DNA of 64,000 bases from Rickettsiales bacterium (lineage in GTDB: Bacteria > Pseudomonadota > Alphaproteobacteria > Rickettsiales > UBA3002): assembly GCA_028281385.1 (NCBI GenBank), contig JANQJY010000004.1:8141-72140 (forward strand), given 5' to 3'. Each line of letters opens with the position of its first letter. Position 1 is the first letter of the stretch. Below are positions 11,042 through 18,475 of this stretch, piece by piece. Below the pieces are notes generated by a model, which did not search any database, was not told where the DNA came from, and saw nothing but the letters and a program-made list of their open reading frames with translations. Position numbers and translations under genes: made by a program.

Positions 11042-11212
11042 CTGATCTATTCTACGTTAAAGCTAAGATATACGTCTTATAGCTGTATTATTATCAAATG
11101 TCAGTTGTTTATACTGAGCATTTTCTCCACTTCCCTTCCGCTGTTTCGGCCAACTTGGTGATTGAATCCAGTTCTGCTGGCCTCTCTTGTTATCCTTTGC
11201 TATACCCCACGC

Positions 11213-13018
11213 ATGACAACCGACATCACGAACATCCGTAATTTCTCGATCATTGCACATATCGACCACGGCAAGAGCACACTGGCGGACCGGCTGATCC
11301 AGCAATGTGGAGCGGTTGAGGAGCGTGAGCTGGGCGAGCAGATGCTCGATAATATGGAGCTAGAGCGCGAGCGCGGCATTACCATCAAATCGCAGACGGT
11401 ACGGCTGGAATACAAAGCCAAAGACGGGCAAACTTACATTCTTAATCTGATGGATACGCCGGGCCATGTCGATTTTACCTATGAGGTCAGCCGTTGTCTG
11501 TCGGCCTGTGAAGGTGCGCTGCTGGTGGTCGATGCGGCGCAGGGTGTGGAGGCGCAGACGCTGGCCAATGTCTATCAGGCAATCGAGCAGGATCTCGAGA
11601 TCATTCCGGTACTCAACAAGATCGATCTGCCGGCGGCCGAGCCAGATCGGGTAAAAGAGCAGATCGAGGATGTGATCGGCATTGATGCGAGTGATGCGTT
11701 AATGGTCTCGGCCAAAACCGGACTGGGCATTGAAGAGCTGCTCAAAGCGATTGTCCAACGCCTGCCGGCACCCAAGTCACCGGAGCAGGACCCGCTCAAA
11801 GCGCTGCTCATCGATAGCTGGTATGATACCTATCTCGGTGTCATTATTCTGGTGCGGGTGTATGAGGGCGAACTGCAGAAGGGCCGGAAAATCCGCTTTA
11901 TGAATGCGGGTGTGACGCAGGACGTCAATCAGGTCGGGGTGTTTACGCCGAAGACGCAAGAAGTGGCGTCGCTGGGACCGGGCGAGGTCGGCTATATCAT
12001 CACTGGCATCAAACAGGTGGCCGATACCAAGGTCGGCGATACGATCACGGAAGAGAAAAATCAAACGCCGGAGCCGCTGCCGGGATTCAAACCGGTGCAG
12101 CCGGTGGTGTTCTGCGGCATCTACCCGACCGATAACGGCCAGTATGATCATCTGCGCGATTCGCTGTCGAAGCTGCATCTGAACGATGCGAGTTTTCTCT
12201 ATGAACCGGAAAGTTCTACTGCTTTGGGGCTGGGTTTTCGTTGCGGTTTTCTCGGGCTGTTGCATCTGGAGATTATTCAGGAGCGTCTGGAGCGCGAATA
12301 TGACGTTGATCTGATTACCACGGCGCCGAGCGTGAGCTATCAGCTGACCATGACCGATGGGGCCGAAATGGAACTGCATAATCCGACCGACTACCCTGAT
12401 CCGGTCAAGGTGGCGGAGATTCGTGAGCCGTGGATTCGCGCCACCATCATGGTGCCCGATGATTATCTGGGCAATGTCCTGTCGCTTTGTACCGAAAAGC
12501 GCGGGGTGCAGGAGAACCTTACCTATGTCGGCAGCCGGGCGATGGCGGTCTACAGGTTGCCGCTCAATGAAGTGGTGTTTGATTTTTACGACCGGTTGAA
12601 AAGCTGCTCGAAAGGCTATGCATCGTTTGATTATGAGATGGCTGGCTATGAGGTGGGCGATCTGGTCAAGCTGTCGATCTTGGTCAATGGTGAGCCGGTC
12701 GATGCGCTGGCGCTGATGGTGCACCGTTCTCAGGCCGAGCAGCGAGGCCGGGCGCTGTGTGCGAAGTTGAAAGATTTGATCCCCAAACATCTGTTCAAAA
12801 TTCCGATTCAGGCGGCAATCGGCGGCAAGATCATCGCGCGCGAGACGATTTCGGCGATGCGCAAGGACGTGACCGCGAAATGTTATGGTGGTGATATTAC
12901 CCGAAAACGCAAACTGCTGGAGAAGCAGAAGAAGGGTAAGAAAAAGATGCGCTCGATCGGCAATGTCGACATTCCGCAAAGCGCGTTTATTGCTGCGCTC
13001 AAAATGGGTGATGAGTAA
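11213..13018 (+). CDS. lepA: elongation factor 4 (LepA)
   Basis: [30 protein letters not shown]..., [13 protein letters not shown], and C-terminal [40 protein letters not shown]. Collinear with E. coli LepA over its full length. Start moved to ATG 11213; the track used an upstream TTG. Confidence 0.97.
12960..13016 (+). repeat. copy A of a 57-bp direct repeat (the live 3' end of lepA)
   Basis: GCAATGTCGACATTCCGCAAAGCGCGTTTATTGCTGCGCTCAAAATGGGTGATGAGT. It recurs at 14037 and 15117 in the same orientation. Confidence 0.9.
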
Positions 13019-13051: not shown

Positions 13052-13813
13052 CTACGGCACCAGTTCCCAATAGAGTCCACAATGATTGACAGTCTCTGTT
13101 AGGTTATATTCCAACCCCGTGCCGGTCGTACAATCCACTGCTGTACCAAGTCCATGTGCGATGACCTTGCCGCTGGCGGGCAAACCGTCATCTTTTTTCG
13201 TATCCATATTCCACGCTTCTTCCGGAGTAAATACACCTAGATTGTCGTTAAATCCGCTACTCACATTAAATATGTGTGGTTGTGCGATTGTCATCGCCAG
13301 ATAGATCGATGAGGTTAGCACTTCATGTGCGTTGGGGATAGCGCCATTGCCGCTAGCCGAATTATGCCATGGTCCGGACACAAACATCCCTTTGCTTTCT
13401 GCTGCGGGTACGCGTGGATAGCCTTGTCCTAAAATGGCGGTGCCATCATAATTACCCCCCAACAACCCAGCCTGGTTCAGCTGAATAAAAAATTGCGGAC
13501 GTTCGCCATCAAAATACCAATTGTCTGGGGTTGTAAAACTACCTCCATGTGCTCCACCAATCACTTGAATTGTGCCATCGCCATTGCCATCGAGTGCGGT
13601 GGGCCAGAAATTACTGGCGTTTCGTAAATCGCCGGGCCAGCCGAAATAGCGGTCACGAAACGTATGCATGGCGGCGATATAGGTTTCTGGTGTTGTAATT
13701 GTTTTGCGCAACTCCGCATTACGTATGAGGTTTTGCCCGGTGAGAATGCCGCCGGTCAGCAAACCGAGGATCACCAGAACAATACTTAATTCAACTAACG
13801 AAAAACCACGCAT
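13052..13813 (-). CDS. prepilin-type N-terminal cleavage/methylation domain protein (type IV pilin / pseudopilin-like), 253 aa
   Basis: MRG|FSLVELSIVLVILGLLTGGILTG is a class III signal with Glu+5. C-terminal Cys pair DCTTGTGLEYNLTETVNHCGLYW (pilin D-region-like loop). Start set at the Met preceded by GGGAGA. Confidence 0.85.
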   Translation of the reverse strand: MRGFSLVELSIVLVILGLLTGGILTGQNLIRNAELRKTITTPETYIAAMHTFRDRYFGWPGDLRNASNFWPTALDGNGDGTIQVIGGAHGGSFTTPDNWYFDGERPQFFIQLNQAGLLGGNYDGTAILGQGYPRVPAAESKGMFVSGPWHNSASGNGAIPNAHEVLTSSIYLAMTIAQPHIFNVSSGFNDNLGVFTPEEAWNMDTKKDDGLPASGKVIAHGLGTAVDCTTGTGLEYNLTETVNHCGLYWELVP

Positions 13814-13990
13814 GATACTTCTCCCTTCGCTGGTGGACGGGGAGTTCATAAACCTTCAAACAGAGAGGTCCCGCTGGTCTTTAGGCAAGCCCTGGACATG
13901 CACCAACGGCTCCCCGACCATGGGAAGATCGAGGAGTATGAATAACGGTCATACCAACCGCTGTTTGAAGGGGTTATGACGCCCCGCGAT
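13814..13990 (-). ncRNA. candidate structured 5' leader (cis-regulatory RNA) of pilin-like gene 1
   Basis: 11-bp closing helix (plus coordinates 13853..13863 with 13961..13971) enclosing three conserved helices. The invariant 3' tail GAACUCCCCGUCCACCA can pair with the SD GGGAGA. Covariation with copy 2 (see findings). Confidence 0.5.
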
Positions 13991-14036
13991 AATCATAATC
14001 ACCGCAACATTATTCTAACAAACTCATGATAAAGAA

Positions 14037-14093
14037 GCAATGTCGATATTCCGCAAAGCGCGTTTATTGCTGCGCTCAAGATGAGTGATGAGT
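14037..14093 (+). repeat. copy A' of the lepA 3'-end repeat (3 mismatches to A)
   Basis: GCAATGTCGATATTCCGCAAAGCGCGTTTATTGCTGCGCTCAAGATGAGTGATGAGT. It reads [19 protein letters not shown] in the lepA frame. Confidence 0.9.
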
Positions 14094-14137
14094 CGTGAGA
14101 TTTACACGGCGTGCTGTAAAGAAGGCGCCACTATGAT

Positions 14138-14899
14138 TTACGGTACAAGTTCCCAATATAATCCGCAATGTTCAATGGTTTCCGTCAGATTATATTCTAA
14201 GCCCGTAGCGATGGTACAGTCTTCGGCACCACCCAGACTACCATGCGCAACGACTTTGCCACTGGCGGGCAAACCATCATCCTTCTTGACATCCATATTC
14301 CAGGCCTCTTCAGGTAAAAACAGACCGTATGTATCGTTAAACAAGCCATTAACATTAAACCAAGCGGGTTGTGCAATCGTCATCGCCAGATAGATGGACG
14401 CAGATAGGGAGCTTACTGCATCGGGAATGGCTCCATTTCCTCCGGTGTCGGGATACCACTTCCCGGTAACAAACATGCCTTTACCGGAAGCAGCCGGCAC
14501 ACGGGGGTAGCCCTGTCCCAATACCGCAGAACCGTCATAACTGCCTTCCAGCAACCCGGCCAGATTCAGCTGAATGAAAAATTGCGGGCGTTCTCCATCA
14601 AAAAATGGATTGTCAGGCAACGTATAAGAAGTAGCATATACACTAGCCGCTTCGATCTGCCCATCACCATCGCCGTCCACTGCTGTCGGCCAGAAGTCGC
14701 TGGCATTGCGTAAATCACCTGGCCAACCGAAATATTGATCACGAAAAATATGCATGGCCGAGATATATTCCTCTGCCACTGTCATGGTTTTACGCAACTC
14801 TGCTGCGCGGATAAGATTCTGGCCGGTTAAAATCCCACCCGTCAACAAGCCAAGAATAACCAATACAATACTTAATTCGACTAATGAAAAACCACGCAT
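14138..14899 (-). CDS. prepilin-type N-terminal cleavage/methylation domain protein, paralog 2, 253 aa
   Basis: MRG|FSLVELSIVLVILGLLTGGILTG is identical to paralog 1. Roughly 70 percent identity overall by eye. Same C-terminal DCT...HCGLYWELVP. Confidence 0.85.
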   Translation of the reverse strand: MRGFSLVELSIVLVILGLLTGGILTGQNLIRAAELRKTMTVAEEYISAMHIFRDQYFGWPGDLRNASDFWPTAVDGDGDGQIEAASVYATSYTLPDNPFFDGERPQFFIQLNLAGLLEGSYDGSAVLGQGYPRVPAASGKGMFVTGKWYPDTGGNGAIPDAVSSLSASIYLAMTIAQPAWFNVNGLFNDTYGLFLPEEAWNMDVKKDDGLPASGKVVAHGSLGGAEDCTIATGLEYNLTETIEHCGLYWELVP

Positions 14900-15072
14900 A
14901 ATCAATCTCCCTCAGTTGGTGGACGGGGAGTTCGAAAAACCTACTCTAAGAAAGGTCTCCGCAGGCCTTTGGGTAACACCTTGGACATACGCCAGCGGCT
15001 CCCCGGCCATAAGGTCGAGGAGTATGAATGACGGTCATACGAACCGCTTAGAGTAAAGGATTTCGACACCCC
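14900..15072 (-). ncRNA. candidate structured 5' leader of pilin-like gene 2
   Basis: Same helices as copy 1 with compensatory changes. Closing helix UACUCUAAG/CUUAGAGUA (plus coordinates 15047..15055 with 14942..14950). Confidence 0.5.
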
Positions 15073-15116
15073 AGGATTTACATCCTGTTGTAGCATAGCA
15101 AGTTCAGGGCGCAAAA

Positions 15117-15173
15117 GCAATGTCGACATTCCGCAAAGTGCGTTCATCGCCGCGCTCAAGATGAGTGATGAGT
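15117..15173 (+). repeat. copy A'' of the lepA 3'-end repeat (6 mismatches to A), followed in frame by a stop
   Basis: GCAATGTCGACATTCCGCAAAGTGCGTTCATCGCCGCGCTCAAGATGAGTGATGAGT+AA encodes [18 protein letters not shown]-stop. Four of the six differences from A are synonymous third-position changes. Confidence 0.9.
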
Positions 15174-18399: not shown

Positions 18400-18475
18400 G
18401 GGGCATTAGCTCAGTTGGTAGAGCGCTACAATGGCATTGTAGAGGTCAGCGGTTCGACTCCGCTATGCTCCACCA
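18400..18475 (+). tRNA. tRNA-Ala (anticodon GGC)
   Basis: GGGGCATTAGCTCAGTTGGTAGAGCGCTACAATGGCATTGTAGAGGTCAGCGGTTCGACTCCGCTATGCTCCACCA folds into a full cloverleaf. G3:U70 alanine identity pair, anticodon loop AUGGCAU, encoded CCA. Confidence 0.95.

Follow-up and report, generated by a model that had tools for sequence, protein, structure and literature searches.

Two alternative, covarying folds in an RNA leader of mobile elements, related to sRNA-Xcc1 and found upstream of two pilin-like genes

The small RNA sRNA-Xcc1 of Xanthomonas campestris (Rfam family RF02221), which is carried by integrons, transposons and plasmids, is described in PMC2996969, and where that work is cited in PMC12189769, as an 88-nt RNA that acts in trans under HrpG/HrpX control, and not as a leader. 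In Xanthomonas integron cassettes, the gene symE lies downstream of sRNA-Xcc1 (bioRxiv 10.1101/2025.06.18.660453). The element analysed here is a structured RNA leader of ~180 nucleotides (nt) that precedes each of two pilin-like genes in a stretch of DNA from a Rickettsiales bacterium (assembly GCA_028281385.1, contig JANQJY010000004.1). The whole stretch, 64,000 nt long, is henceforth referred to as the window, and both leaders are read on its minus strand. The 3' half of the leader is a distant relative of sRNA-Xcc1, and the leader is not wholly new; in the reading favoured here, it is the alphaproteobacterial full-length form of an element whose 3' half is listed in Rfam as sRNA-Xcc1.

In shape, the 3' domain of the leader agrees with sRNA-Xcc1: a G/C-rich closing stem of 9-10 base pairs (bp) (GGYCGGGGAG / CUCCCCGRYC) encloses two hairpins, and both RNAs have a UUnnnAA linker and end in a CACC tail. 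Both elements are carried by mobile elements, and a same-strand gene follows each of them at short distance. They differ in length (~180 nt for the window element versus 87 nt), and the window element lacks a U-tract after the closing stem and is contiguous with a Shine-Dalgarno sequence (SD) and an open reading frame (ORF).

Three further systems are comparable in layout. The c4 RNA (immI) of phages P1 and P7 is a structured RNA in the leader of an antirepressor-type operon, with complementary sequences upstream. Relatives of the present leader also sit before antirepressor or BRO genes, but loops complementary to the downstream ribosome-binding site are absent from the leader and no match to the Rfam C4 family was found. 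A c4-like antisense role of the variable strands was tried and rejected, as their duplex energies with the 90 nt downstream were -6.6 kcal/mol with the own versus -6.6 with swapped sequences, and -4.8 versus -5.0 kcal/mol. Translational riboswitches resemble the leader in having a conserved junction with a pseudoknot, and mutually exclusive helices with an anti-SD-like sequence beside the SD, but here the genes downstream are mobile-element genes of unrelated function and no known riboswitch class was matched. Type I toxin mRNAs (hok, tisB, aapA) use SD/anti-SD sequestration together with long-distance pairing between 5' and 3' ends (PMC8594479). Likewise, an anti-SD in cis, long-distance pairing of 5' with 3' sequence, and a local hairpin at the 5' end that competes with this pairing are predicted here, and relatives of the leader precede the toxin gene symE. 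In contrast to these mRNAs, the leader showed no kinship in sequence or family and no antisense partner was found for it, its long-range pairing lies within the leader and not between the mRNA ends, and its activation by processing is a prediction.

Structure and covariation of the leader

The initial annotation of the window had proposed a conserved structured RNA in both leaders despite patchy sequence conservation. This proposal was confirmed in the same minus-strand region, where the two copies share a fold whose pairs covary across the homologues aligned. Upstream of the two genes the sequences can be aligned well, invariant blocks alternating with stretches that are fully different yet complementary. 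Of the invariant blocks, GAACTCCCCGTCCACCA and GTATGACCGTYATTCATACTCCTCGA were each found at two places in the 64 kb and no more, compared with ~0.09 and 0 occurrences expected by chance. The minimum-free-energy structures of the two copies agree in architecture, and their z-scores relative to dinucleotide shuffles are -3.4 and -2.6.

Homologues were gathered with a sequence pattern that fixed the core CGGGGAG and the tail AACUCCCCG..CACCA, and the at least 133 distinct sequences were obtained by scanning with such patterns. Alignment A2 comprised 106 representatives, a covariance model referred to as R1 was built, and 102 matches were realigned as alignment A3, which is fitted to the rod described below; E-values from R1 are rough. 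When the window was searched with R1 using cmsearch, the two leaders were the only matches. Their R1 scores are not independent since both copies were part of the R1 seed alignment. The parts of the leader are as follows.

13830-14005, minus strand: leader copy 1, from the P0 hairpin to the ACCAG tail, upstream of the gene at 13813-13052; 144.3 bits with R1, full length
14916-15086, minus strand: leader copy 2, from P0 to the ACCAA tail, upstream of the gene at 14899-14138; 126.2 bits with R1, full length
13986-14005 (copy 1, GCGGUGAU-UAUG-AUUAUCGC) and 15073-15086 (copy 2, AGGAU-GUAA-AUCCU), minus strand: P0 hairpin
13970-13985 (copy 1, GGGG-CGUCAUAA-CCCC) and 15057-15072 (copy 2), minus strand: segment able to form the local hairpin H5, whose loop is also the 5' strand of P1b
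13961-13971 (copy 1, CCUUCAAACAG) and 15047-15056 (copy 2, UUACUCUAAG), minus strand: 5' strand of P1c
13936-13961 (copy 1), minus strand: pseudoknot P2, in which S1 pairs GCGGU with ACCGU and S2 pairs GUAUGA with UCAUAC
13927-13936 (copy 1, CUCCUCGAUC) and 15013-15022 (copy 2), minus strand: anti-SD-like element 1, the 5' strand of PA
13910-13919 (copy 1, GGUCGGGGAG) and 14999-15008 (copy 2, GGCCGGGGAG), minus strand: shared SD-like element, partner of element 1 (PA) or element 2 (PB)
13871-13909 (copy 1) and 14959-14998 (copy 2), minus strand: P3 hairpin, with hypervariable P3a, the internal loop GYAUGUCCA / AAAG and apical P3c
13844-13869 (copy 1), minus strand: 3' strands of the rod, in the order ACCU (5' strand of P4), CUGUUUGAAGG (P1c), UUUAUGAAC (P1b)
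14931-14950 (copy 2), minus strand: 3' strands of P1c and P1b
13830-13844 (copy 1, CUCCCCGUCC-ACCAG) and 14916-14930 (copy 2), minus strand: anti-SD-like element 2 and tail, the 3' strand of PB, invariant between the copies
13820-13825 and 13811-13813, minus strand: SD (GGGAGA) and ATG of gene 1
14906-14911 and 14897-14899, minus strand: SD and ATG of gene 2

No terminator was found between leader and ORF in the window copies.

With the nested model on A3, 91.4% of cells were paired compared with 70.1% when partners were shuffled. The covariation score was 0.579 compared with 0.186 in the shuffles, none of which (0 of 500) scored as high. Pairing fell to 37-49% when partners were slid by 1-3 columns.

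The helices proposed from the two window copies were all recovered in the family. The first of them, in which CCUUCAAACAG/CUGUUUGAAGG of copy 1 is replaced by UACUCUAAG/CUUAGAGUA in copy 2, corresponds to P1c, a long-range helix of hypervariable sequence. Across the 102 homologues, 97.2% of its cells are paired, each of its seven modelled pairs changes on both sides with 4-6 pair types, and its duplex energy is -8.9 kcal/mol with the own partner versus -1.45 kcal/mol with a swapped one. P1b, which is 96.7% paired with 4-5 pair types per position, extends P1c outward, and the two form a long-range rod of ~15-17 bp linking the 5' and 3' parts of the leader, with a duplex energy of -30.6 kcal/mol for own and -20.3 kcal/mol for swapped partners. 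The second proposed helix corresponds to P3a (97.9% paired, with both-sided changes in 8 of 8 pairs); P3c is 95.1% paired. The AUG and AAAG residues of the P3 loop are at least 90% conserved although they were not fixed by the search pattern. The fourth proposed helix, CUCCUCG/CGGGGAG, is PA, which is 92.7% paired with mostly one-sided, wobble-type changes, and within which columns 181:197 covary (AU 76, GC 6, GU 4).

The third helix, GUAUGA..UCAUAC, had been described as an invariant hairpin. It is real, but it is invariant only between the window copies and covaries across the family. Its loop CCG pairs with the upstream GCGG (S1; 92.5% paired, columns 67:84 being UA in 38, CG in 30 and UG in 10 sequences), so the helix is one stem of an H-type pseudoknot. 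The stem itself (S2) is not reliably aligned, and its duplex energy is -8.4 kcal/mol with own versus -4.3 kcal/mol with swapped partners.

A P0 hairpin (z < -1) directly 5' of the GGGG is found in 91% of members. H5 is 96.6% paired, with changes from G-C to A-U on both sides. P4, an alternative local hairpin, is 90.4% paired, with columns 267:281 being GC in 58, UA in 16, CG in 4 and AU in 3 sequences. In PB, columns 197:301 are UA in 82, CG in 8 and UG in 3 sequences, covarying at the one position that the search pattern left free. A further helix P1a, pairing the 5' GGGG with a 3' CCCC as predicted by RNAfold, was dropped; changes in the GGGG are compensated in the local CCCC of H5, also in true sRNA-Xcc1 loci.

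Cells with G.U outnumber those with A.C by 438 to 116 in total (P3a, 80 versus 0; PA, 151 versus 28; P0, 66 versus 13). This excess assigns the structure to the RNA strand that also carries the downstream ORF in its sense, and the counts in P0 indicate that P0 is transcribed as RNA. The rod (A3 columns 38-63 with 272-292; in copy 1, 13961-13978 with 13844-13863) was observed to be nearly free of wobble pairs, with 28 G.U versus 20 A.C cells. A site of RNase III type, selection at the DNA level and a need for maximal stability are possibilities for this feature.

Two mutually exclusive folds and their relation to sRNA-Xcc1

The SD-like sequence GGYCGGGGAG has two alternative partners, the upstream CUCCUCGRCC (PA) and the CUCCCCGRYC that lies 12-20 nt before the SD (PB). 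Two mutually exclusive folds result, each of which is supported by covariation. Fold 1 consists of the rod and PA. Fold 2 consists of H5, P4 and PB and has the shape of sRNA-Xcc1; PB is its 10-bp closing stem GGYCGGGGAG:CUCCCCGRYC, and the 3' strand of P1c forms the loop of P4. For topological reasons neither PB nor P4 can coexist with the rod, and GGYCGGGGAG is contested between PB and PA. Triple covariation was observed at columns 181/197/301, which read A-U-A in 73 sequences and G-C-G in 5, and in further sequences only one side is compensated. When the unfitted alignment of 106 homologues was given to RNAalifold, H5, PB, P3 and P4 were picked, and not the rod.

The initial annotation had described such a mutually exclusive layout, and a conserved, covarying pair of exclusive helices around the SD-like GGGGAG and two anti-SD-like CUCCYCG elements was indeed found. 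It had also offered the CUCCCC of the tail two partners. Pairing with the core CGGGGAG, which is PB, was borne out by RNAalifold and by covariation, while pairing with the SD received only indirect support and has marginal energies.

For the window leaders at full length, the rod with PA is the better fold by 8-13 kcal/mol on nearest-neighbour energies, with a predicted ground state of -74 to -86 kcal/mol. The 3' fragment alone, in both window copies, folds into the sRNA-Xcc1 shape (PB, P3, P4).

At gathering thresholds, Rfam 15 matched only a tRNA-Ala in the window and nothing in the leaders. In a permissive search, copy 2 matched sRNA-Xcc1 (RF02221) at 14914-15007 with 21.5 bits and E = 1.5, against a cut-off of 53, while copy 1 gave no RF02221 match at E <= 10. 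The expectation that the leader belongs to no family at the curated threshold was therefore upheld by cmsearch, with the sub-threshold sRNA-Xcc1 match as the only hint of a relative. Plasmid-borne relatives of the leader also scored below threshold against RF02221 (35.1 and 27.4 bits), compared with 70-73 bits for bona fide members from Nitratidesulfovibrio, Pseudomonas and Aeromonas replicons and from Stx phages. A tRNA- or tmRNA-like identity, suggested by the ...CUCCCCGUCCACCA end and the CCACCA tail, was rejected, as ARAGORN and Rfam found nothing of the kind in the leaders and the putative T-arm has no 5' strand.

The true sRNA-Xcc1 loci that were retrieved lie 40-70 nt upstream of a same-strand gene, annotated as hypothetical, BRO-family or antirepressor. 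A 5' domain and complementary rod strands are present upstream of them and are readable in two loci, L146 and L147. The matches of R1 to L146-L149 span model positions 1-180 or 23-164 and have rough E-values of 1e-7 to 0.016. The presence of the 5' domain and rod at these loci indicates that a longer leader exists, of which RF02221 captures the 3' half only. The same loci add compensated variants of H5 (AGAG:CUCU, GAGG:CCUC, GGCG:CGCU) and variants of PB. The conserved upstream structure, which comprises ~100 nt outside RF02221, was observed at 1375-1572 of L146, 1370-1582 of L147, 1359-1571 of L148 and 1870-2086 of L149. In Stx phages, the annotated start of the antirepressor gene lies right at the element, with partial overlap. 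The microRNA-size RNA 24B_1 of Stx phages was also considered; it is encoded elsewhere, in the lom region (PMC4426718), and is unrelated. In the literature covered, which included few subscription journals, no account of the full-length element or of a cis role was found.

Distribution, expression signals and the pilin cassettes

The search for further homologues in metagenomes, viral contigs and plasmids was successful, and their pairing covaries. A blastn search of plasmids with leader 1 matched intergenic regions of alphaproteobacterial plasmids (Ketogulonicigenium, Paracoccus, Shinella, Rhizobium, Agrobacterium). In plasmid pYP1, the element adjoins repA and parA and lies directly upstream of a DUF2285 gene. 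With a plasmid-type copy as the blastn query, 175 plasmids were matched, of which 135 are conjugative. With the pattern scan, 15 loci were recovered from viral contigs, and metagenomes yielded at least 120. A stricter pattern, CGGGGAGCCG..GAACTCCCCGTCC, had no match in viral contigs, and blastn of the window leader against a phage collection had none either.

The genes downstream of the family encode RovC_DNA-bd/DUF2285 activators, serine recombinases, an IS3 OrfA transposase, an ECF-type sigma factor, XRE regulators, Imm_superinfect (superinfection immunity) and OMP_b-brl outer-membrane proteins, DUF429, DUF5818 and secreted proteins, and pilin-like proteins, the latter also at a metagenomic locus, L081. 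Several leader copies with different cargo occur within one element at locus L018. The leader is thus a family common to plasmids, integrative elements and phages, located ahead of many unrelated genes and specific neither to pilins nor to this genome.

In 104 of the family loci analysed, the start codon lies either 10-20 nt or 55-70 nt past the ACCAG tail, the longer spacing reflecting an extra hairpin between leader and start. This hairpin, with the apical sequence GCGGGGGCG(N)ACCGC, is conserved in copies of plasmid and integrative-element type, where it sits between the ACCAG tail and the SD (L008 2656-2718, L009 2606-2672, L010 2591-2647 and many metagenome loci). In a subfamily (e.g. L027, L029, L046, L122, L125, L140), a downstream CUGGUGA(Y) can pair with the G(A/G)UCACCAG tail.

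The SDs behind family members are unusually rich in G. SD windows with at least 5 nt complementary to CUCCCCG made up 60% and 77%, compared with 23% for control ORFs on the same contigs (p = 9e-7 and 1e-17). In the window, the GGGAG of the SD is complementary to CUCCC.

The 5' boundary given in the initial annotation needs correction, and the promoter given there is probably wrong. The proposed promoter, TTGTTA-N18-TATGAT, was the sole match of a consensus scan, but its -10 hexamer falls within the P0 loop, and P0 has the pairing pattern of a transcribed sequence, so this promoter is unlikely. The RNA starts further upstream than had been proposed, at the conserved P0 (14005-13986 and 15086-15073). 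Both copies share TTGCTT-N17-TA(G/T)(A/G)(A/C)T, which ends 6 nt ahead of P0 and is below the threshold of the consensus scan; from this we infer a candidate leader promoter that would be weaker than consensus. The promoter and gene features are as follows.

14035-14040 and 14012-14017, minus strand: candidate promoter of copy 1 as read from the sequence, TTGCTT, 17 nt, TAGAAT; predicted start ~6 nt on, at the first base of P0
15115-15120 and 15092-15097, minus strand: candidate promoter of copy 2 as read from the sequence, TTGCTT, 17 nt, TATGCT
13052-13813, minus strand: pilin-like gene 1, 253 amino acids (aa), with a prepilin N-terminal cleavage/methylation motif
14138-14899, minus strand: pilin-like gene 2, 253 aa, with a prepilin N-terminal cleavage/methylation motif

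The two pilin-like proteins are 75% identical. Pfam N_methyl and TIGR02532 cover their N-terminus only, and no other recognisable feature was found. Their protein family numbers 3669 relatives, mostly from uncultured Alphaproteobacteria and Rickettsiales-like metagenome-assembled genomes. When a collection of genome contigs was searched for paralogues with the pilin proteins, two distant loci were all that came up. The nearest homologues of the pilin-like proteins in other samples (~50% identity) lack the leader. Upstream of such leaderless homologues, a divergent HTH_3 gene and a palindromic operator of ATATGCGATAT type were observed (L001 2843-3000, L004 2114-2248), and one of this set adjoins a GGDEF-EAL gene. 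One pilin-like gene family is wired to quite different regulators in different samples.

The pilin cassettes of the window, each of ~1.08 kb, are bracketed by direct repeats of the 3' end of lepA (11162-13018, plus strand). The last 57 nt of lepA are present three times, at 12960-13016, 14037-14093 and 15117-15173, and the homology stops at ...GACATTGC, where the TTGCTT hexamer of each cassette starts. The arrangement looks like serial site-specific insertion or tandem duplication of cassettes. No recombinase gene was seen near the cassettes of the window. An integron attC site was considered for the element and rejected, as no R''/R' core sites are present in the sequence and no copy lies downstream of the last cassette. 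A second cassette of leader and pilin-like gene (259 aa) was observed at 1229-2270 of L081 (metagenome contig Ga0209231_1004158), between trmD and rplS. It is convergent with trmD, overlaps the last 20 nt of that gene, and has CTTGCTTT at both ends. This locus suggests that pilin cassettes insert at the 3' ends of housekeeping genes. The tRNA-Ala(GGC) at 18400-18475, the sole match of Rfam and ARAGORN in the window, lies ~3 kb from the cassettes, beyond three ORFs, two of them without a Pfam match.

Interpretation of the leader

We lean, with some reserve, towards the reading that the leader is a portable, cis-acting two-state "safety catch" of mobile elements that gates translation or processing. 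Fold 1 (rod and PA) would be the ground state of the full-length RNA, in which the 3' CUCCCC is not locked in PB and the initiation region would be poorly available. Fold 2 could be reached when the 5' strand of the rod is removed or displaced, whether by processing, by co-transcriptional kinetics or by a bound factor or ligand. It would then lock CUCCCCG in the 10-bp PB helix and free the SD. The module would in this way silence genes until the transcript is matured or triggered, as in type I toxin mRNAs, and in the window it would have been recruited with its own promoter to two cargo cassettes of pilin-like genes. We infer every step beyond the two mutually exclusive, covarying folds themselves.

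Several points weigh against this reading. Fold 2 lies 8-13 kcal/mol above fold 1 by nearest-neighbour energies, and the predicted accessibility of the SD is nearly equal in the two constrained folds (0.20-0.22 in copy 1 and 0.33-0.37 in copy 2), in a calculation of accessibility and energy that cannot treat pseudoknots. Forcing the CUCCC:GGGAG pairing costs ~2-10 kcal/mol and is marginal in the window copies, and G-rich SDs could simply be strong SDs. The core and tail fixed by the search pattern leave PB and the anti-SD only 2-3 positions for covariation testing, and both window copies have a mismatch, U.U or C.U, at the third position of PB. The strongly conserved unpaired residues of P3 hint at a specific partner that is absent from a two-state model. 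The RNA is a prediction from sequence, and what has been reported for sRNA-Xcc1 is a discrete RNA of 88 nt, with an interpretation as acting in trans (PMC2996969).

Conserved unpaired residues (GYAUGUCCA / AAAG, UAUGG) flanked by freely covarying stems would also be expected of a ligand-binding riboswitch, whose aptamer, made up of the three-way junction, pseudoknot and P3 loop, would bind a small molecule or second messenger and whose expression platform would be PA/PB; the pseudoknot itself, the conserved mutually exclusive helices and the lack of a matching Rfam class are consistent with this as well. The genes downstream share no common pathway, however, as they include recombinase, transposase, DUF2285, sigma factor, immunity, outer-membrane and pilin-like genes, and this heterogeneity argues against a pathway-specific metabolite riboswitch. 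Several copies with different cargo occur per element (L018 and the window), and both the 88-nt Xanthomonas RNA (PMC2996969) and the Rfam model comprise the 3' domain only, without the 5' half of the putative aptamer. Of the features expected of an aptamer with an expression platform, covarying stems, conserved loops and the PA/PB alternative are present, but the predicted SD accessibility barely differs between the folds. A riboswitch is unlikely on this balance; if it is one, it may respond to a signal of global reach, for instance a metal ion or a second messenger of nucleotide type. The proposal of a new riboswitch ahead of pilin genes thus stands as a structured cis leader with alternative pairings; it is not pilin-specific and is probably not a classical riboswitch. 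We consider it similarly improbable that the leader is the precursor of a small RNA (sRNA), whose 3' domain (PB, P3, P4 and ACCA tail) would be released by processing and act in trans or on its own operon like the c4 RNA of P1. The 3' fragment folds autonomously, and relatives lie upstream of antirepressor-type genes, like c4. PB followed by ACCA resembles what we take to be an RNase P minihelix substrate. Such a precursor would also fit with sRNA-Xcc1, which accumulates at a length of 88 nt and has its ends where PB has them (PMC2996969). Conversely, recognition loops would most naturally be sought in the hypervariable strands, but these pair with each other and have no specific complementarity to the 90 nt downstream. 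No terminator follows PB in the alphaproteobacterial copies, and ARAGORN finds no tRNA- or tmRNA-like gene at the leaders.

The unrelated genes downstream, the short SD distance fixed throughout, the ground state of -74 to -86 kcal/mol and the similar SD accessibility in both folds could also reflect a constitutive expression module that does not switch, but stabilises the mRNA and insulates the ribosome-binding site from upstream sequence across hosts and insertion sites. This is quite unlikely, as it leaves unexplained the two covarying alternative partners of GGYCGGGGAG, the covariation of H5 and P4 despite their incompatibility with the rod, and the tight conservation of unpaired residues. 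An element acting at the DNA level, either as a single-stranded hairpin in conjugative transfer (a single-strand promoter or priming site) or as a recombination site of cassettes, would fit the near absence of G.U from the rod (28 versus 20 A.C), the concentration of the family on conjugative plasmids and the lepA 3'-end repeats around the window cassettes. It is very improbable given the overall 438 to 116 excess of G.U over A.C, which fits a sense-strand RNA, the constant orientation and spacing to SD and start codon, the detection of sRNA-Xcc1 as a transcript (PMC2996969), the lack of attC-type core sites by reading and the absence of the element past the last cassette.

A broader extension of the safety-catch reading can be offered only tentatively. 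The leader and sRNA-Xcc1 may represent a single ancient module of plasmids, integrative elements, integron cassettes and phages in Proteobacteria and Desulfobacterota, a riboregulator activated by processing or sensing a factor or ligand, which holds dangerous or costly genes untranslated until a trigger arrives. Such genes would be transfer activators, recombinases, transposases, antirepressors, toxins and surface proteins. The family is large and richly covarying, with clear alternative helices, which makes the hypothesis directly testable. If it is true, one post-transcriptional device would be common to hundreds of conjugative plasmids and integrative elements, with carriers that include elements of Agrobacterium, Rhizobium and Sinorhizobium and, via the sRNA-Xcc1 branch, Stx phages, and it would precede genes that decide on transfer, excision, induction and surface display. 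sRNA-Xcc1, widely annotated as a trans-acting virulence sRNA, would be the 3' domain of a cis-acting leader. For the Rickettsiales genome analysed here, the two pilin-like genes would be imported cassettes equipped with the regulatory hardware of mobile elements and not a native pilus regulon.

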